NCBI GenBank assembly: GCA_029865265.1
Contig: JAOUHG010000002.1
Location: forward strand, 98,357-162,356
Direction: 5' to 3'
DNA from: Candidatus Krumholzibacteriia bacterium
GTDB taxonomy: Bacteria; Krumholzibacteriota; Krumholzibacteriia; WVZY01; JAKEHA01
DNA: 64,000 nucleotides
A model generated the notes under the pieces. It worked only from the letters and a program-made list of their open reading frames with translations, did not search any database and was not told where the DNA came from. The translations under genes and the position numbers were made by a program. Below, in pieces: positions 50,680 to 58,133 of this stretch; the stretch's first letter is position 1, and each line of letters opens with the position of its first letter.

Positions 50680-50933
50680 GGTTCTGGTCCGCCGAAGCGC
50701 GACAGTCTAGCGCCCGCCGGGAGCGGCTGGCAAGGGACGCGTGCTTGACGGTCTGCGACGTGCGCGGGCGGCGGGTGCGGCAACTGTGGACGGGAATGCT
50801 GGCGAGCGGGCGAACCCTGGTGCCATGGGACGGCCGCGACGACCGCGGCGTGGCGGTCCCATCGGGCGTGTACTTCCTGCGCGCCACGGCGGGCGCCGCG
50901 GCGGACGTGACCCGGGTGGTACGGGTGCGCTAG
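50673..50933 (+). pseudogene. Orphan remnant of a T9SS type-A C-terminal sorting domain (last ~60 codons of a lost cargo gene)
   Basis: The frame translates ...LTVCDVRGRRVRQLWTGMLASGRTLVPWDGRDDRGVAVPSGVYFLRATAGAAADVTRVVRVR*, matching the tail pattern (IYDVRGRxV...WDGRDxxG..V.SGVYFYR...). No upstream body or signal peptide. Wedged between the MFS start and the fabV stop. Confidence 0.4.
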
Positions 50934-52117
50934 ACCGCCTCTTCGAACGCCACCACCGGGTCGACGTCGGCGTCGTAGTCGACCCCGGCCAGACCGAAAC
51001 CGAACAGCTTCAGAAACTCCGCCCGGTAGCCATCAAAGTCGGTCAACGTGTTGAGATTCCCGGTGGTGATGGACGGCCAAACGCGGTCCACCTCCGCCTG
51101 CACGTCCTCGCGCATCTCCCAGTCGTCCAGGCGCAGGCGTCCCTTCTGGTCCACCGGCGTGTCCCCCGCGGCGTAGAGCCGCGCGAACATGCGCTGCGTC
51201 TGTTCGATGCACCCCTCGTGGGTGCCGTTCTCCTTCATGATCTTGAAGAGCAGCGAGATGTACAGCGGCACCACCGGAATGGCGGAACTCGCCTGGGTGA
51301 CGACGGCCTTCATCACCGACACGAACGCGTGGCCGCCCTTTGCCGCCAGGCGCGCATCGATCGCCTTGCCGGCACGCTCCAGGTCCTCCTTGGCGCGGCC
51401 GATGGTGCCGTCGCGATAGATGGGCCAGGTGAGCCGGGGGCCGATATACGTGTACGCCACGCTGCGGCAGCCGTCCGCGAGGAGCCCCGCGCCGTCCAGC
51501 ACGTCCACCCACATCTCCCAGTCCTCGCCGCCCATGACCTGGATGGTTTCGCGGATCTCTTCTTCGTTCGCGGGCTCGATGGTGACATCACCCACCACGG
51601 CGCGGTCGGTATCGACGGTCTTGCCGTGGTAGGTGGCGCCGATGGGCTTCAAGGTCGACTTGCTCGTCTCACCCGTCCCCGGAAGCGTGCGCTTGGGCGA
51701 GGCCAGGCTGTAGACCAGCAGGTCGATGGGGCCAATGCCGCGCAGCATTTCGATGGTGCGCGCCTTGGCCTCATCGGAGTACGCGTCGACGTTGAGGCTC
51801 CGCGCCACCAGACCCGCCGCGCGCGCTTCGCTTTCGAACGCAACCGAGTTGTACCAGCCCGCGGTGGCGGGGCGGTTGTCGGCTGGCGGCCGCTCGAGGA
51901 ACACACCCACCGTGGCCGCGCCGCACCCGAATGCGGCGTTTATGCGCGAACCCAGGCCGTAACCGGTCGACGCGCCCACCACCAGCACGCGTTTGGGACC
52001 ACCCGCAAGCGTGGGTTTGGAGCGCACGAATTCAACCTGCTCGCGCACATTGGCCGTGCAACCGGTGGGATGGGTGGTGACACACACGAATCCACGAACC
52101 TTCGGCTTGATGATCAT
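50930..52117 (-). CDS. fabV: trans-2-enoyl-CoA/ACP reductase
   Basis: MIIKPKVRGFVCVTTHPTGCTANVREQVEFV...VVGASTGYGLGSRI is the diagnostic FabV/TER N-terminus. Confidence 0.9.
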   Translation of the reverse strand: MIIKPKVRGFVCVTTHPTGCTANVREQVEFVRSKPTLAGGPKRVLVVGASTGYGLGSRINAAFGCGAATVGVFLERPPADNRPATAGWYNSVAFESEARAAGLVARSLNVDAYSDEAKARTIEMLRGIGPIDLLVYSLASPKRTLPGTGETSKSTLKPIGATYHGKTVDTDRAVVGDVTIEPANEEEIRETIQVMGGEDWEMWVDVLDGAGLLADGCRSVAYTYIGPRLTWPIYRDGTIGRAKEDLERAGKAIDARLAAKGGHAFVSVMKAVVTQASSAIPVVPLYISLLFKIMKENGTHEGCIEQTQRMFARLYAAGDTPVDQKGRLRLDDWEMREDVQAEVDRVWPSITTGNLNTLTDFDGYRAEFLKLFGFGLAGVDYDADVDPVVAFEEAV

Positions 52118-52129
52118 GGAGCTCCCTTC

Positions 52130-53167
52130 CTAGTCGATCACCGTGTCACGGCGGCGACGGTGAATCTCTTCCACAATGGCGTCGGTGACCGACCGGGTGG
52201 TGCCCGTGTGACCGAGGTCCGGCGTCAGCACCTGGGCGTGATCCCGGGTCACCGTGCGCACCGACTTGCGTATGCGCACGTACGATTCCGTGTCGCCCAG
52301 GTGGTGGCACATCATCGCTGCGGAGAGAATCATCGCGATGGGATTGGCGATGCCCTTGCCGGCGATGTCCGGCGCCGACCCGTGGATGGCCTCGAAGACC
52401 GCGCAATCCGGCCCGTAGTTCGCACCCGGCGCGAGACCCAGACCGCCGATCAGGCCGGCGGCCAGGTCGCTCACGATATCGCCGTAGAGATTCTCCAGCA
52501 ACAGCATGTCGTACTGCCCGGGGTTGGTCACCAGCTTCATGGCCAGCGCGTCGACCAGCACATCATCGAACTTGACGCGGCCTTCGTAGGGCAGCGACTC
52601 CTGGCGGGCGCACTCCAGGAACAGGCCGTCCGCTTTCTTCATGATGTTGGCCTTGTGCACCGCGGTCACGCGATGGCGCCCCCACTTGATGGCGTGCTCG
52701 AAGGCGAATTTGGCGATGCGCCGGCTGGCGGTCTCGGTGATGACCTTGATGGACGTCACCACGCCGGGCGCGACTTCGTTCTCGAGGCCGGCGTAGAGGC
52801 TCTCGGTGTTCTCGCGCACGATCACCAGGTCGGTCTTGCCGAAGGGCGTCTCCAGCCCCGGCACGGTCTTGACGGGACGAATATTGGCGTAGAGCGAGAG
52901 CTCCTTGCGCAAACGCACGTTGGCGGACACGTGCCCCTTGCCGATGGGCGTGGTGGTGGGCCCCTTGAGGGCCACGCCGCAGCGCCGGATCTCGTCCAGC
53001 ACCGCGGGCGGCAGCGTATCGCCGTGCGTCTCGAAGGCACCGGCCCCGATCTCCATGGGGATCCATTCGATCTCGGGCCCGGACGCGTCTACGACGCAGC
53101 GCGCCGCCTCCACCACCTCGGGGCCGATTCCGTCGCCCGGCAACAGGACGACCCGATGCTTTGCCAT
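52130..53167 (-). CDS. Isocitrate/isopropylmalate dehydrogenase family enzyme (likely NAD-dependent)
   Basis: VVLLPGDGIGPEV, ...NLYGDIVSDLAAGLIGGLGLAPGANYG. Confidence 0.7.
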   Translation of the reverse strand: MAKHRVVLLPGDGIGPEVVEAARCVVDASGPEIEWIPMEIGAGAFETHGDTLPPAVLDEIRRCGVALKGPTTTPIGKGHVSANVRLRKELSLYANIRPVKTVPGLETPFGKTDLVIVRENTESLYAGLENEVAPGVVTSIKVITETASRRIAKFAFEHAIKWGRHRVTAVHKANIMKKADGLFLECARQESLPYEGRVKFDDVLVDALAMKLVTNPGQYDMLLLENLYGDIVSDLAAGLIGGLGLAPGANYGPDCAVFEAIHGSAPDIAGKGIANPIAMILSAAMMCHHLGDTESYVRIRKSVRTVTRDHAQVLTPDLGHTGTTRSVTDAIVEEIHRRRRDTVID

Positions 53168-53213
53168 TCACAGTCCTCTCGATGATTGATAAGACGCGCG
53201 GAACGGGATTCAA

Positions 53214-53227
53214 CCGGTGATCACCGG
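53214..53227. promoter_or_regulatory. Perfect 14-bp palindrome CCGGTGATCACCGG ~47 nt upstream of the dehydrogenase start
   Basis: Read directly from the sequence. Possible operator. Confidence 0.25.
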
Positions 53228-53315
53228 ACGCGCGCATGGTAACACATCACGCACACGCTGTCACACGCCGGGCGGATTGTGCGCGCCGGGGCGCGCCGCC
53301 CCGGCCGCGAGGAGG

Positions 53316-54299
53316 CTAGTAGCCGGGTGGGAATTGCCGGTCTTTGGACAGGTAGCGCAGCCAGGTGCCCGCACCTTCGGCCTCGGCGAGCGTTTTCACG
53401 CGGCGGAATCCGTCGCCGTACACGTCGTCGCCGTCGCGGGTGAGACTCACGCGGAAGAACGAGCTTTCCCGGCCGGGGTACTGGGCCAGGACCAGGAACG
53501 CGGCGTAGTTGCAGCTCCCCTCCGACCACGCGCGCTCCGACTTGAACTGCCCCTGGTTGAATTGCCAGATGTGCGCCAGTTCGTGGGCGATGGTGCTGAT
53601 GATCTCCATGCGCGGCATGCCGTACAGCAGGTACATGTTCATGCGCCTGCCCCTCGAGTACCCCAGCAGGCGGAATTGCTCGCGGTAGTCGGTGAAGCCG
53701 CGCAGGCCGTCCGAATGGTGCCCGGAGAGTTTCTGCATCTTCTCGCGCCCCACCAGATGGATCTGCACACCCTCGTAGTCCACGTTCATCCCGAACGCCT
53801 TCATGTGCCCGGCGACCTCGTTGACCAGGGTCAGTATCTCGCCGACGTCGGTGATTGATTTCGGGCGGCAGACGTTGCACACGAAGCGACCGTCGTCGTA
53901 GCGCACGCCGCCACCGGTCAGTGGCTCGGAAATGAACCGCCCGCATGAGTCGCACACCGGCGCGACACCGTCGTGGTGCTGGCAGTACGAGTTGCCCCAG
54001 TAGTCCTGCAGGTACTCACCGGTGATGGTTGCATTGCACAGCGAGCAGCGCAGCGCCACGTGATCGCGGAAGCAATCGTTGTGATAGACCTTCCCCTGGT
54101 ACTCGCTGTAGGAGCCGCTGATGGCGAGGTCGCAGTGGGCGCAGCGGAAGTGGTTGGCGTGGTAGGAGAGCCCCTTGGTGGTGAAGTAGGGTCCGTCGAT
54201 GGGTTCACCGCAACTGGCGCACACGCCGGGCGACTCCTGGGCCGAGGCGGCACCCGCCAGGACGGCGAGGAGCAGGAATGCAATCAGCAGGAACCGCAT
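53316..54299 (-). CDS. Secreted protein with tandem LIM-like zinc-finger domains and a C-terminal DA1-like HExxH metallopeptidase domain
   Basis: ATG at 54299 gives MRFLLIAFLLLAVLAGAASAQE (signal peptide). CASCGEPIDGPYFTTKGLSYHANHFRCAHCDLAISG...VYHNDCF (CxxC-x16-HxxH-xx-CxxC-x16-HxxC) is followed by a second CxxC...CxxH...CxxC...CxxC module. C-terminal ...ISTIAHELAHIWQ (HExxH). Confidence 0.55.
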   Translation of the reverse strand: MRFLLIAFLLLAVLAGAASAQESPGVCASCGEPIDGPYFTTKGLSYHANHFRCAHCDLAISGSYSEYQGKVYHNDCFRDHVALRCSLCNATITGEYLQDYWGNSYCQHHDGVAPVCDSCGRFISEPLTGGGVRYDDGRFVCNVCRPKSITDVGEILTLVNEVAGHMKAFGMNVDYEGVQIHLVGREKMQKLSGHHSDGLRGFTDYREQFRLLGYSRGRRMNMYLLYGMPRMEIISTIAHELAHIWQFNQGQFKSERAWSEGSCNYAAFLVLAQYPGRESSFFRVSLTRDGDDVYGDGFRRVKTLAEAEGAGTWLRYLSKDRQFPPGY

Positions 54300-54344
54300 A
54301 CCGTGAAGATGGCGCCGCAGGCCGCGCCGGGGCAAGGAACGTCG

Positions 54345-56330
54345 CTACAGGACGCGGTCGTTTCCGCCATCCACGGGAATCTGGGCGCCGGTCGTGCGCG
54401 AGAACAGGCGGCCGCACAGGGCGACGGCGAGGGCCGCGACATCGCCCGACGCCACCTCCACGCCGAGCAGGTTGCGGCGCCGGTACGATTCCACGTCCAT
54501 TCCGTTCTCGGCCGCACGGGCTGCCAGCACCTCCGTGGTCCATATGCCGGTGTCGAACACATCGTTGGGGTGAAGCACATTCACCCGGATGCCGGCGGGG
54601 GCGAACTCCATCGCCGCCACCCGGGCCAGCTGGGTAAGACCCGCCTTGGCAACGGAATAGGCGGCGGCGCCCCGTCCCGGCGCGGGCACGTTCTTCGAGC
54701 CCACGATCACGATTGCAGGATCGATGCCCGATTCCAGGAATGGCAGCGCCTTCTGCAGGAGGCCGAGGTGGGCGTCCAGGTTCACGGCGACACTCTCGTT
54801 CCACCGTTCGCGGGGCAGTTCCGCGATGCGCGACGAGGCGGGAAAGATTCCCGCGTTGCTCACCAGACAGTCGATCCCCCCGAAACGGCGCACGCCATCG
54901 TGGATCGCGGCCTCGACCGCTTCGGGATCGGTCACGTCGCACACGCACGCGAGAACGCGGGGATCGTCCCAACGCGCTTCCACCGATTCGCTTCGATCCA
55001 GCGCCACCACGCACGCTCCCGCCGCCAGGAATGCCTCCGCACACGCGCGCCCGATCCCGCCCGCCGCACCGGTCACCAGCGCCACGCGTCCGGCAAACTC
55101 GCCACGCGCGGGGGCGCGTGAAAACTTGGCCTGTTCGAGTTCCCAGTATTCGACCTCGAAGATGTCGTCTTCCGGCAGCGCTTCCCAGCCACCGAGCATC
55201 TCCGCTCGTTCGATGGCGGGCAGCGTGTGCGCCACGATGTCCGCCGCCACCGCCGCGTCACCGTACGACGCGGCGAAGGTGACGGTGCCCCGCTCCTTCC
55301 ACAGTGCCCATCGCGGCGCCGGGTCCAGCGCCTGCAGCGAGCCGCTGGTGTTGGCGTCGAAGTACGCGCGGTACGCCTGCGCGAACGCCGCGACGGCGTC
55401 CGCCGGGTCGGCCTCACCGTCGAGTACCACCGGGGTGCGGCGGGTGCGGATCACGTGATCGGGGGTGAGCGGACCCCGCGTCGCGATGTCGGCGGCGTCC
55501 TGCCGGCTCGAGAAGGCAACGTTCGAGGCGGAGGTGTCGGCACGCGCCACCATCGGCGTGCCGGCAGCGCGCGATACCGCACGGCGGGCCCGAGCCAGTA
55601 CGCGCAGGTCCGCGGCGTTCAGTTGGTGTGGCGCCTCCCCGGCTTCCTCCCACGGCGCGTGCACGTCCAGGTAGTCCTCGGCCTCCGTCACCAGTTGGAT
55701 CATGCGCTCGTAGCTGGTGCGCGCGTCGTCCCCGAAGGTGAACACCCCGTGGTTGAGCAGGATGATGCCCTCCATCTCCGCCCAGTCCACGTCGCGCGTC
55801 ATGTCGAAGACCTCACGCGCCAGCACGAAGCCGGGCATGACGTAGGGCACGATGAAGATGCGGTTGCCGTAGATCTCGCCGATGCGCTCCACCCCGTTGG
55901 GCGAGTTGGTGATGGTGACGACGGCGTCGGCATGGGTGTGATCGACGAAGGCGAACGGAATGATGGCGTGGAGAATGGCTTCGACCGACGGTGTGGGCGC
56001 CCCCGGGTCGAGCAGCAGCGCGCGCAGCATGGTAACCATGCGCGTGTCGGTGAGGGCGGTGAGTTCCGCCATGCGGCGCACGCCCTCGAGACGCAGGGGC
56101 GCAAAGCCACCGCGTTCGATGGTGGCCAGGTCCCAGCCGCTTCCCTTCACCCAGATGGCGTCCTGCGGGTCGCCAAACACGTCCGGCGCCGCGGCCTTCA
56201 CCGAGGTATTGCCACCGCCGTGCAGAACCAGGGACGATTCGCTGCCGATCAAACGGGACGTGTAGACGCGGAGCGCGAGCGCATCATCGCCGGCGGCGGG
56301 CGCGTCGGCTTCTTCCCACTGGCTTCTCAA
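54345..56330 (-). CDS. Bifunctional class II aldolase (rhamnulose-1-phosphate aldolase-like) / short-chain dehydrogenase
   Basis: N-terminal class II aldolase/adducin domain (...LVLHGGGNTSVK..., HTHADAV). C-terminal SDR (VALVTGAAGGIGRA, YSVAKAG). A known fused architecture, 661 aa. Confidence 0.8.
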   Translation of the reverse strand: MRSQWEEADAPAAGDDALALRVYTSRLIGSESSLVLHGGGNTSVKAAAPDVFGDPQDAIWVKGSGWDLATIERGGFAPLRLEGVRRMAELTALTDTRMVTMLRALLLDPGAPTPSVEAILHAIIPFAFVDHTHADAVVTITNSPNGVERIGEIYGNRIFIVPYVMPGFVLAREVFDMTRDVDWAEMEGIILLNHGVFTFGDDARTSYERMIQLVTEAEDYLDVHAPWEEAGEAPHQLNAADLRVLARARRAVSRAAGTPMVARADTSASNVAFSSRQDAADIATRGPLTPDHVIRTRRTPVVLDGEADPADAVAAFAQAYRAYFDANTSGSLQALDPAPRWALWKERGTVTFAASYGDAAVAADIVAHTLPAIERAEMLGGWEALPEDDIFEVEYWELEQAKFSRAPARGEFAGRVALVTGAAGGIGRACAEAFLAAGACVVALDRSESVEARWDDPRVLACVCDVTDPEAVEAAIHDGVRRFGGIDCLVSNAGIFPASSRIAELPRERWNESVAVNLDAHLGLLQKALPFLESGIDPAIVIVGSKNVPAPGRGAAAYSVAKAGLTQLARVAAMEFAPAGIRVNVLHPNDVFDTGIWTTEVLAARAAENGMDVESYRRRNLLGVEVASGDVAALAVALCGRLFSRTTGAQIPVDGGNDRVL

Positions 56331-56369
56331 TGGCAGACCTCCACCGGGCGACTCTAGCCCCGTGGGCGC

Positions 56370-58133
56370 CTACTTGAGAAGCACCAACTTTCGGGTCAGA
56401 ACCTCGGCGCCGGCATCGAGGCGGCAGAAGTACACCCCCGAGCCCACCCGCTCGCCGCGCGCATCGGCGCCGTTCCAGCGCACGCGGTGTGCGCCCGCGG
56501 GCAGCGCCCCCCGCCGCAGGGTAACGACGTGCGCGCCGGATGCGTCGAAGATCGCCAGCGTCGCGTCGGCGGCCCGGGTCAGTTCGAAGCGGATTTCGGT
56601 GGCCGGATTGAAGGGGTTGGGGCTGTTCTCCAGCGACAGCAGCGCCGCGCGGGGCGCGGTCGTCACCGCGGTGGCGGGAACGTCGTTGTCGTAGAGGTAG
56701 ATCCAGTCGTCGATCTCATCCAGCCCGCTGAGGTCGAGGTCGCCGTCGTTGTCGCGGTCGTGCAGCAACGCGCACGAACCCGCGGTGCTGGCCAGCAGCG
56801 TGCGCGCATTGGCGAAGGTGGCGCCGGTGTTCTCGTACAGCGTCCACGTGCCGGCCGTGTAGTTGCTCGTCACCAGCTCGAGGTCGCCGTCGCCGTCGAT
56901 GTCGCCGGTGTCGATCGCCAGCGGGAACAACCCCACCGTCTTGTAGTACGGCGCCGCCAGCCCGCCCGCGCCGTCGCCCAGCAGCACCGCAAGCCGGCTC
57001 TGGTTGGTGTTGCAGATGGCGGCGTCGACGTTGCCGTCGCCGTTGAAGTCCCCCACCACCATCTGCCAGGGCTGCCCGCCGCCGGCGGTGGGCGTCTGCG
57101 CCGCCAGGTCGCCGTTGCCGTCGCTCAACATCACCACGATGTTGTAGGGAGACGAGAAACAGCCCACGAACACGTCCTGCAGGCCGTCGTTGTTGGCATC
57201 GGCCACCGCGATGGAGAACTCATTGGCGCCGGCCTCGCGCGCCACCGCGCTCGCGAAGGTGCCATCGCCGTTGTTGAGCAGGATGCTCACCGTGCTCGCG
57301 AAGCGGTTGGCGGTGACGATGTCGTCCCACCCGTCGCCGTTGAGATCCAGCACGCCCACACCGCGCACGCTGTTGCCGGCCGTGTAGGTCGCCGAGGCCG
57401 GGAAGTCGCCGGTTCCGTCGCCGAACATCACGCTGACCGTGCTGTTGCCGGTGTTTCCAACCACCAGATCGATCTCACCGTCGTGGTCGAAGTCGGCGCC
57501 CTCGTTGGGACTCGGAACCAGGCCGCCGGGCACGGGCCTGGCGGTGAACGACGTGTACCCGCCGGCGCCGTTATTCATGAAAACGCGCACGTCGTGGGTC
57601 TGTTCGCACGGCGCGGAGAGGTCGGTCCACCCGTCGTTGTTGAGATCGCCGGCGTACGCGCCGTAGACCTGCACCCACGACTCCCCCCCCTGGCGGCAGG
57701 GCACCCGTCCGCCGTAGGTCAAATCGAGATCGCCGGGGGCGGTCTTGATCCAGAAGTTCCACGCGTAGCCCCGGGCCATCGGTTCGCCGGACGGGTTCTC
57801 GACGCCGCGGCTCACGTTGACCGTCACCCATTCGCCCGCGAAGAACGGCACGCTGGGCGTGAATTCGATGCGGGCTCCGTTTACGGTGGTAACACCGCTG
57901 GCCGGACCCGACCAGCGCCCGTAGACGCGGAAGGAAATGCCGTCGACGGTGGCGGGATCGATGGCGCGGTCGAAATCAACGCGGATCACCGTGTTGGCGG
58001 GAACGTCCACGCGCTGGGGCACGGGGTAAACAGCGGTAACCGATGGTGGGGTGGCGAAGGCGGCTCCGGCGGCCGCAACGACCAGCAGCGCGCCCACCCA
58101 CGGGGTGCATGTCCAGCGTCTCATGTTGCTCAT
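56370..58133 (-). CDS. Secreted FG-GAP/VCBS repeat beta-propeller protein with a T9SS type-A sorting domain
   Basis: Signal peptide MSNMRRWTCTPWVGALLVVAAAGAAFA. Repeated DLNNDGWTD / DFDHDGEIDLVVG / DLNGDGWDDIV / DANNDGLQDVFVG / DIDGDGDLELV blades. Ends LENSPNPFNPATEIRF...FDASGAHVVTL...WNGADARGERVGSGVYFCRL...RKLVLLK. The start is ATGA-overlapped with the ispH stop. Confidence 0.75.
   Translation of the reverse strand: MSNMRRWTCTPWVGALLVVAAAGAAFATPPSVTAVYPVPQRVDVPANTVIRVDFDRAIDPATVDGISFRVYGRWSGPASGVTTVNGARIEFTPSVPFFAGEWVTVNVSRGVENPSGEPMARGYAWNFWIKTAPGDLDLTYGGRVPCRQGGESWVQVYGAYAGDLNNDGWTDLSAPCEQTHDVRVFMNNGAGGYTSFTARPVPGGLVPSPNEGADFDHDGEIDLVVGNTGNSTVSVMFGDGTGDFPASATYTAGNSVRGVGVLDLNGDGWDDIVTANRFASTVSILLNNGDGTFASAVAREAGANEFSIAVADANNDGLQDVFVGCFSSPYNIVVMLSDGNGDLAAQTPTAGGGQPWQMVVGDFNGDGNVDAAICNTNQSRLAVLLGDGAGGLAAPYYKTVGLFPLAIDTGDIDGDGDLELVTSNYTAGTWTLYENTGATFANARTLLASTAGSCALLHDRDNDGDLDLSGLDEIDDWIYLYDNDVPATAVTTAPRAALLSLENSPNPFNPATEIRFELTRAADATLAIFDASGAHVVTLRRGALPAGAHRVRWNGADARGERVGSGVYFCRLDAGAEVLTRKLVLLK

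Follow-up and report, generated by a model that had tools for sequence, protein, structure and literature searches.

Introduction

In crops, organ and seed size are under the control of DA1 peptidases, which need their LIM-like domain for activity. A gene in a 64,000-nucleotide stretch of DNA from a Candidatus Krumholzibacteriia bacterium (contig JAOUHG010000002.1; the whole stretch is referred to below as the window) raises the question what a protein of this general design would be doing behind a predicted export signal in a bacterium. An earlier note, prepared from the sequence alone, had described the gene product as a secreted fusion of two LIM-type double zinc fingers with a DA1-like peptidase that mirrors plant DA1.

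The gene and its predicted export signal

The gene, the product of which is called the LIM-peptidase here, and the leader that it encodes occupy the following positions.

53316..54299, minus strand: complete gene of the LIM-peptidase, with an ATG start and 327 codons followed by TAG (ORF list, translation)
54240..54299, minus strand: Sec-type signal peptide, residues 1-20, MRFLLIAFLLLAVLAGAASA (predicted, read from the sequence)

Independent gene callers have called the same 327-residue product on four public contigs, and a database search returned a protein with 100% identity (P0001) that is named 'LIM domain-containing protein [Candidatus Krumholzibacteria bacterium]' at NCBI. The GC content of the gene (0.643) and its GC3 (0.884) are like those of the adjoining genes.

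The leader, MRFLLIAFLLLAVLAGAASA, is followed by QESPG and is composed of a basic n-region, some 16-18 uncharged residues and A-S-A before Gln21; these features were judged by inspection and with simple scripts, and cleavage after ASA20 is a prediction made by eye. The proposed open reading frame was confirmed, and a signal peptide at its start is made probable by a basic n-region and a hydrophobic core in 108 of the 117 full-length close homologues among the matches listed. Small residues that fit the -3 and -1 positions of a cleavage site come after the h-region in 114 of these 117. The h-region of the homologues has a median length of 16 residues, and the mean net charge is +1.3 in the N-terminal and -0.7 in the C-terminal flank; such a charge bias, together with a 16-residue h-region, is typical of cleaved signal peptides. 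The h-region of the Krumholzibacteria protein itself reaches 18 uncharged residues. A hydrophobic leader is also found in 106 of 146 HExxH-bearing representatives of distant clusters, taken from the best 150 of the 563 clusters described below.

The LIM-peptidase has no lipobox and no RR motif, and among the 117 homologues a lipobox-like sequence occurs twice and an RR motif once. A T9SS-type C-terminal sorting domain was not matched by Pfam in the LIM-peptidase, the C-terminus of which is part of the peptidase domain and is conserved with plants to the last residues. An alternative TTG start at 54335, which would add MPRRGLRRHLHG and give the N-terminus a slightly Tat-like appearance, was rejected because the homologues start at M-R, the RR motif is restricted to that one homologue in 117, and the gene callers choose the ATG. 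Judged from these sequence features, the periplasm, reached via Sec, is the most probable location of the protein. The term 'secreted' of the earlier note is best taken to mean predicted export across the inner membrane, in all probability into the periplasm; the protein has neither a T9SS domain nor a lipobox.

The zinc-finger modules

Two cysteine- and histidine-rich modules follow the leader.

54072..54221, minus strand: canonical LIM domain, residues 27-76 (Pfam LIM, PDB matches, conserved ligands)
53868..54047, minus strand: LIM-like binuclear module, residues 85-144 (sub-threshold LIM match, Foldseek, alignment with DA1)

The first module reads C27-x2-C30-x16-H47-x2-H50-x2-C53-x2-C56-x16-H73-x2-C76 in the translation, with C27, C30, H47 and H50 as one zinc site and C53, C56, H73 and C76 as the other. 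With its x16 loops, this spacing fits the LIM consensus, which is C-x2-C-x16-23-H-x2-[CH]-x2-C-x2-C-x16-21-[CH]-x2-[CHD]. The Pfam LIM profile (PF00412) scores 45.8 bits against the whole protein (cut-off 22.9) and 43.3 bits against the first module alone (residues 21-82), and sequence matches of this module in the PDB include LIM domains of PDLIM5, PINCH and paxillin, with E values down to 1.4e-06.

The second module, C85-x2-C88-x17-C106-x2-H109-x6-C116-x2-C119-x21-C141-x2-C144, also has eight ligands, which form the sites C85, C88, C106, H109 and C116, C119, C141, C144; position 106 is Cys or His in the homologues. Tested alone, it scores 20.2 bits with the LIM profile, half of which is matched, and it therefore fails the LIM threshold, as it fails the LIM spacing with a linker of x6 rather than x2 between the zinc sites. 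Of the two double zinc fingers with a common spacing that had been proposed, the first is thus exact and the second, with x17/x6/x21, deviates; from its spacing and score the latter is better named 'LIM-like', as in DA1, than a second canonical LIM domain. A Foldseek search against the PDB aligned the N-terminal half of the predicted structure (residues 22-150) over about 134 columns to two-LIM structures with a probability of 1.00, among them PINCH1 LIM4-5, Lhx3/Isl1 and LMO4/LDB1. Tandem LIM structures were the top matches (E 2.6e-07), in agreement with a tandem treble-clef fold, which indicates that the second module has a LIM-type fold despite its spacing.

Conservation was evaluated in an alignment of 30 sequences that reaches down to 39% identity to the LIM-peptidase and has a mean column identity of 44%. 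Fifteen of the 16 finger ligands are invariant in it, including His47, His73 and His109, and position 50 is His or Cys. The invariant histidines suggest that the fingers still bind metal and have not turned into disulfide knots, and the invariant Cys and His residues together point to two zinc ions per LIM module, which we infer for both. A point against zinc-loaded modules in an exported protein is that cysteine-rich zinc sites are unusual in the oxidising periplasm.

The peptidase domain and the predicted structure

The remainder of the protein contains the catalytic features.

53319..53852, minus strand: DA1-like zincin metallopeptidase domain, residues 150-327 (Pfam PF12315, hhalign against plant DA1)
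53571..53585, minus strand: HELAH zinc-binding and catalytic motif with H239, E240 and H243 (reverse complement CAC GAA CTG GCG CAC)
53520..53522, minus strand: Glu260, predicted third ligand of the catalytic zinc in HExxH-x16-E (alignment)

The HELAH motif was correctly recognised in the earlier note; it covers residues 239-243, and H239, E240 and H243 are invariant in the 30-sequence alignment, as are E260, which lies in S-E-G-S-C-N and, as the predicted Glu ligand after HExxH, agrees with a clan MA active site, and a C-terminal Y-G-x-G-F-R motif. Cys263 (53511..53513), three residues past the predicted glutamate ligand, is nearly invariant and is kept in plant DA1 as well, where the sequence is E-E-G-I-C-Q.

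The DA1-like profile of Pfam (PF12315) matches the whole protein with 29.2 bits, narrowly over the cut-off of 25 and across profile positions 83-129 of 213 only, and the peptidase part alone with 32 bits. The LIM and DA1-like profiles that the earlier note had suggested for a check therefore both score above their cut-offs, and both also match in 30 of 30 homologues, PF12315 with a best E value of 1.6e-13. The C-terminal 176 residues gave weak, sub-threshold matches to DUF6782, SprT-like, M78 and M91 zincins; an NCBIfam search of the LIM-peptidase gave no match, and a PDB search found no solved structure related in sequence to the peptidase domain. An AlphaFold model, for which 30 homologues were used as input, has a pLDDT of 91.4 and a pTM of 0.80. 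Structure prediction, also proposed at the outset, is thereby in agreement with the domain assignment, both in its confidence and in the resemblance of the N-terminal half to tandem LIM structures. The modelled peptidase domain is of the alpha/beta type, with a strand (E219-225) ahead of the active-site helix (H230-248).

Relation to plant DA1 and other known proteins

The parallel with plant DA1 that the earlier note had drawn is supported. The resemblance extends over the whole region from the LIM domain to the C-terminus, which is collinear in the two proteins and makes up the last two thirds of DA1. With 'DA1 protein [Arabidopsis thaliana]' (P0269) as the plant reference, BLASTP aligned residues 26-324 with DA1 171-531 at 24% identity (E 2e-22), and a profile-profile comparison (hhalign), in which the bacterial alignment was set against ten DA1/DAR proteins of plants, gave 99.85% probability and an E value of 9.7e-31 over 300 columns, which begin at the first cysteine of the LIM domain and end at the terminal F-P residues. 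In these alignments HELAH pairs with HEMMH of DA1, and E260 with the second Glu of HEMMH-x15-EE, the active-site motif of DA1 (PMC5322733). The LIM-like module aligns with C232..C297 of DA1 in such a way that C119 corresponds to C274, the chs3-2d site, where a C274Y change abolishes DA1 activity (PMC5322733). Plant DA1 and DAR proteins have the same order of elements: a canonical LIM domain, an eight-ligand LIM-like module, a zincin domain with HExxH-x15/16-E, and Y-G-[DE]-G-F-R. Even the behaviour in profile searches is shared, since in Arabidopsis DA1, as in the LIM-peptidase, Pfam recognises the first LIM and misses the LIM-like region.

There are also clear differences. Plant DA1 contains N-terminal ubiquitin-interaction motifs (UIMs), as seen from a UIM_2 match, whereas no UIM was matched by Pfam in the LIM-peptidase, so that the ubiquitin-dependent activation of DA1 cannot apply to the bacterial protein. 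Furthermore, plant DA1 is cytosolic or nuclear, while the LIM-peptidase has a predicted Sec signal peptide instead, and two insertions seen in the peptidase domain of plant DA1 are lacking. By its sequence, the LIM-peptidase is to be regarded as a member of the DA1-like LIM-peptidase family, and not as a functional equivalent of ubiquitin-activated DA1.

Closer in score to the plant enzyme is a class of leaderless bacterial proteins annotated as 'protein DA1', such as MBF0263801.1 from a Gammaproteobacteria bacterium and MEO5334756.1 from Magnetococcus sp., a name that at NCBI rests on the same Pfam families. These proteins share the LIM-like and peptidase core, but they carry two to three canonical LIM domains and no leader, are presumably cytoplasmic, and reach 120-134 bits against plant DA1, as compared to 87 bits for the LIM-peptidase. 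The prokaryotic proteins reported by Burroughs, Iyer & Aravind (2011; Mol Biosyst 7:2261), among them the Roseiflexus homologues that Dong et al. (2017) cite, are similar in that bacterial LIM or LIM-like zinc modules are joined to a DA1-type metallopeptidase. PINCH1 LIM4-5, Lhx3/Isl1 and LMO4-LDB1 resemble residues 22-150 of the predicted LIM-peptidase in fold, but are intracellular adaptors without an enzyme, whereas the modules of the LIM-peptidase are fused to a protease and, as predicted, exported.

Distribution and classes of homologues

The LIM-peptidase belongs to a large bacterial family. A database search gave 166 homologues of the same architecture, with E values down to about 1e-83, which together with the invariant ligands puts the motifs far outside what chance would produce, and both Pfam families are present in 117 of the 120 matches listed, the other three being partial sequences of 236-246 residues. 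When one genome per prokaryotic species was scanned, 79 loci were found, which belong to Krumholzibacteriia/Latescibacterota, Zixibacteria, candidate division GN15, Ignavibacteriales/Melioribacteraceae, Calditrichota, Cloacimonadota, Neomarinimicrobiota, Acidobacteriota, Spirochaetes and Endozoicomonadaceae; the family also occurs in Proteobacteria (Gammaproteobacteria, Magnetococcus). When 1.84 billion cluster representatives were searched exhaustively with a profile, 563 clusters (50% identity) were obtained at E<=1e-30, a count that takes in a few multi-LIM proteins without a peptidase domain, and HExxH is present in 146 of the best 150 of them. In the candidate phyla related to Bacteroidota, most of which were sequenced after 2011, the forms with a signal peptide dominate.

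A wide taxonomic distribution was thus obtained, but the novelty implied in the earlier note was overstated, as bacterial homologues are already in the literature. A plant-genomics paper in which 249 bacterial genomes were surveyed calls the DA1 family plant-specific (PMC4007552). Dong et al. (2017; PMC5322733), citing Burroughs et al. (2011), report bacterial homologues from Roseiflexus with high similarity and four CxxC/H pairs, and term the LIM-like domain 'ancient conserved'. Since Pfam and NCBI label bacterial proteins accordingly, some of them as 'protein DA1', both the family and this very protein are already known at the level of sequence annotation, and no new family has been discovered here.

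Some homologues differ in composition or copy number. Seven spirochaete proteins (L065, L067, L069, L070, L072, L073 and L075), 241-273 residues long and leaderless, consist of the LIM-like module and the peptidase domain only, a composition that points to these two parts as the family's minimal core. The Endozoicomonadaceae proteins L074 (6253-7278), L078 (7917-8936) and L079 (7908-8936) are leaderless as well, with 339-342 residues and the order LIM, LIM-like, DA1-like; their carriers include Candidatus Endonucleobacter and Candidatus Sororendozoicomonas, and they group with the plant-containing clade in a distance tree. As these bacteria are animal-associated, their homologues could be host-directed effectors. 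In the Latescibacteria MAG MFD02242.bin.1.209 two paralogues are present, L029 (7701-8969) and L043 (7893-8915), with 68% and 37% identity to the LIM-peptidase, respectively, so the family can be multi-copy.

A neighbour-joining tree on 242 shared columns separated plants, leaderless multi-LIM bacterial proteins and Endozoicomonadaceae from the signal-peptide clade and the short spirochaete forms in 183 of 200 bootstraps, a grouping that is suggested and not more, because the tree is based on simple distances, its plant branch is long and it has no outgroup. The LIM-peptidase falls in the clade without plants.

Genomic neighbourhood

Five genes, all on the minus strand, are found across 50930..58133, and besides the LIM-peptidase gene these are the following.

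50930..52117, minus strand: FabV-type enoyl reductase
52130..53167, minus strand: isocitrate/isopropylmalate dehydrogenase family protein
54345..56330, minus strand: aldolase/short-chain dehydrogenase fusion
56370..58133, minus strand: FG-GAP/FlgD_ig protein (FG-GAP/Big_5)

Conservation of this order, with its aldolase/SDR, dehydrogenase-family, FabV and FG-GAP genes, is limited to loci of at least 65% identity within Krumholzibacteriia. Unbiased clustering of the flanking ORFs of the 79 loci gave no neighbour that is common across phyla, and with no neighbour conserved beyond Krumholzibacteriia, the surroundings do not hint at the substrate. In the spirochaete locus L069, what had looked like an aldolase/SDR neighbour was dismissed, being only a generic short-chain dehydrogenase of 274 residues. 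PADLOC gave no defence-system match. By all appearances the LIM-peptidase gene is stable and native and stands alone, without an informative operon partner; its native character is supported by a GC3 like that of its neighbours and by the synteny kept across Krumholzibacteriia.

Between the stop codon of the LIM-peptidase gene and the start of the dehydrogenase gene is a gap of 148 nt, and in it a sigma-70-like promoter match occurs at 53236..53264 on the minus strand (GTGACA-17-TACCAT, with a TG extension), so the downstream dehydrogenase gene may have its own promoter. Downstream of the stop codon, a GC-rich hairpin is no more stable than those of shuffled sequence (z 0.56), and a consensus scan detected no minus-strand terminator. 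An open frame of 814 codons at 50741..53185 on the plus strand, antisense to the FabV and dehydrogenase genes, was discarded as a gene together with other long antisense ORFs nearby, since such frames are artefacts of a GC3 near 0.88.

Two further recurrences were observed around DA1-like genes. The FG-GAP/Big_5 neighbour (56370..58133) carries at its C-terminus a FlgD_ig-type domain (about 85 residues), and in ten distant loci (L016, L019, L025, L034, L043, L053, L057, L062, L076 and L077) homologues of this domain lie no more than 8 kb from the DA1-like gene; the domain is probably nothing more than a secretion or sorting tag that is common in these phyla. A Ser/Thr protein kinase of about 870 residues lies near the DA1-like gene in eight loci (L012, L013, L021, L022, L025, L034, L035 and L077), and in L021, L022 and L025 it is divergently adjacent at a distance of about 250-400 bp.

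Proposed function and alternatives

The interpretation that we favour, and that we consider fairly probable on the sequence evidence, is that the LIM-peptidase is a native, vertically inherited, Sec-exported and zinc-loaded periplasmic peptidase that is guided by its LIM modules and performs limited proteolysis. The leader would take the unfolded chain through Sec and be cut off after Ala20, which would release a mature protein of about 307 residues into the periplasm. There its two binuclear modules would take up four structural zinc ions, and the active site a catalytic one. Extended peptides are held by eukaryotic LIM domains through beta-strand addition, and because the best structural matches are LIM-peptide complexes in which binding occurs in that way, the rod formed by the LIM and LIM-like modules is proposed to act as a peptide-binding arm. 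This arm may pick an exported or envelope protein as the substrate, which the gluzincin-type active site would then cut at a limited number of sites. By analogy with the C274Y mutation of DA1, peptidase competence probably depends on the LIM-like module too.

The most serious competitor concerns the fate of the leader. If the N-terminal segment is not cleaved, it would be a signal anchor, and the LIM-peptidase, held on the outer face of the inner membrane, would process membrane or envelope proteins there. Such an arrangement would suit the 18 uncharged residues in the h-region of this protein and the position of the first zinc ligand, only about six residues past the hydrophobic stretch, as well as the prokaryotic LIM radiations that the 2011 abstract of Burroughs et al. 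reportedly describes as partners of membrane-associated peptidases. The small residues at -3 and -1 that follow the h-region in nearly all homologues argue against it, however, as does the median h-region of 16 residues, which is short for a transmembrane helix. We regard a tethered protein as rather improbable, although most of the weight that remains after the cleaved, periplasmic form goes to this variant. A cytoplasmic protein, comparable to the leaderless class and to plant DA1, would imply that the N-terminus has been mis-called or is without export function. Leaderless relatives do occur in Spirochaetes, Endozoicomonadaceae, Gammaproteobacteria and Magnetococcus, and the cytoplasm is where zinc fingers are normally found, but the M-R-hydrophobic leader is conserved as protein across phyla, gene callers agree on the start, no in-frame start exists downstream before Cys27, and the charge bias predicts an N-terminus inside and a C-terminus outside, which makes a cytoplasmic location quite unlikely.

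It is also conceivable that the gene is a recent acquisition of eukaryote-like character, or that it encodes an effector which imitates the LIM/DA1 proteins of a eukaryotic host and is delivered to that host, given that LIM domains are overwhelmingly eukaryotic and that leaderless homologues occur in animal-associated Endozoicomonadaceae, including Candidatus Endonucleobacter. We consider this highly unlikely in view of the identity of only 24% to plant DA1, GC and GC3 values equal to those of adjoining housekeeping genes, the stable synteny within the class, the very deep bacterial radiation (563 clusters at 50% identity), the position of the LIM-peptidase in the plant-free clade of the distance tree, and the fact that the Sec signal is the only one present, a T9SS-type sorting domain being absent. 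A scaffold or binding protein without catalytic activity, in which nothing but the peptidase fold is kept, would have a parallel in plants, where DAR3 and DAR7 are described in a preprint as peptidase inhibitors and not as enzymes (bioRxiv 10.1101/2022.06.21.497003). Loss of catalysis is hard to reconcile with H239, E240, H243 and E260 being invariant in 30 sequences down to 39% identity, and very little probability should be assigned to a pseudo-enzyme.

Implications

To our knowledge, LIM zinc fingers are otherwise known only inside eukaryotic cells, and the predicted export of the LIM-peptidase raises the question how Cys/His zinc fingers survive outside the cytoplasm. At a more general level, it is possible, although we hold this view only tentatively and with more doubt than confidence, that the signal-peptide clade is an old lineage of the DA1 superfamily that works outside the cytoplasm, with zinc-holding LIM modules in the periplasm that steer a protease to specific envelope proteins, and that the leaderless sister clade is the source of plant DA1. 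If true, an origin of plant DA1 from a leaderless bacterial clade would contradict the label 'plant-specific' (PMC4007552).

The value of the present results lies in the follow-up work that they invite, both because of the oddity of exported LIM fingers and because a simple model of DA1-type enzymes might become available. The bacterial relatives are small, lack ubiquitin-dependent regulation and are confidently predicted, and a member such as the LIM-peptidase could make the structure and catalytic mechanism of the LIM-like and peptidase core easier to study. For the bacteria themselves, the LIM-peptidase stands for a predicted exported protease with a wide occurrence among the uncultured phyla of the Fibrobacterota-Chlorobiota-Bacteroidota (FCB) group.
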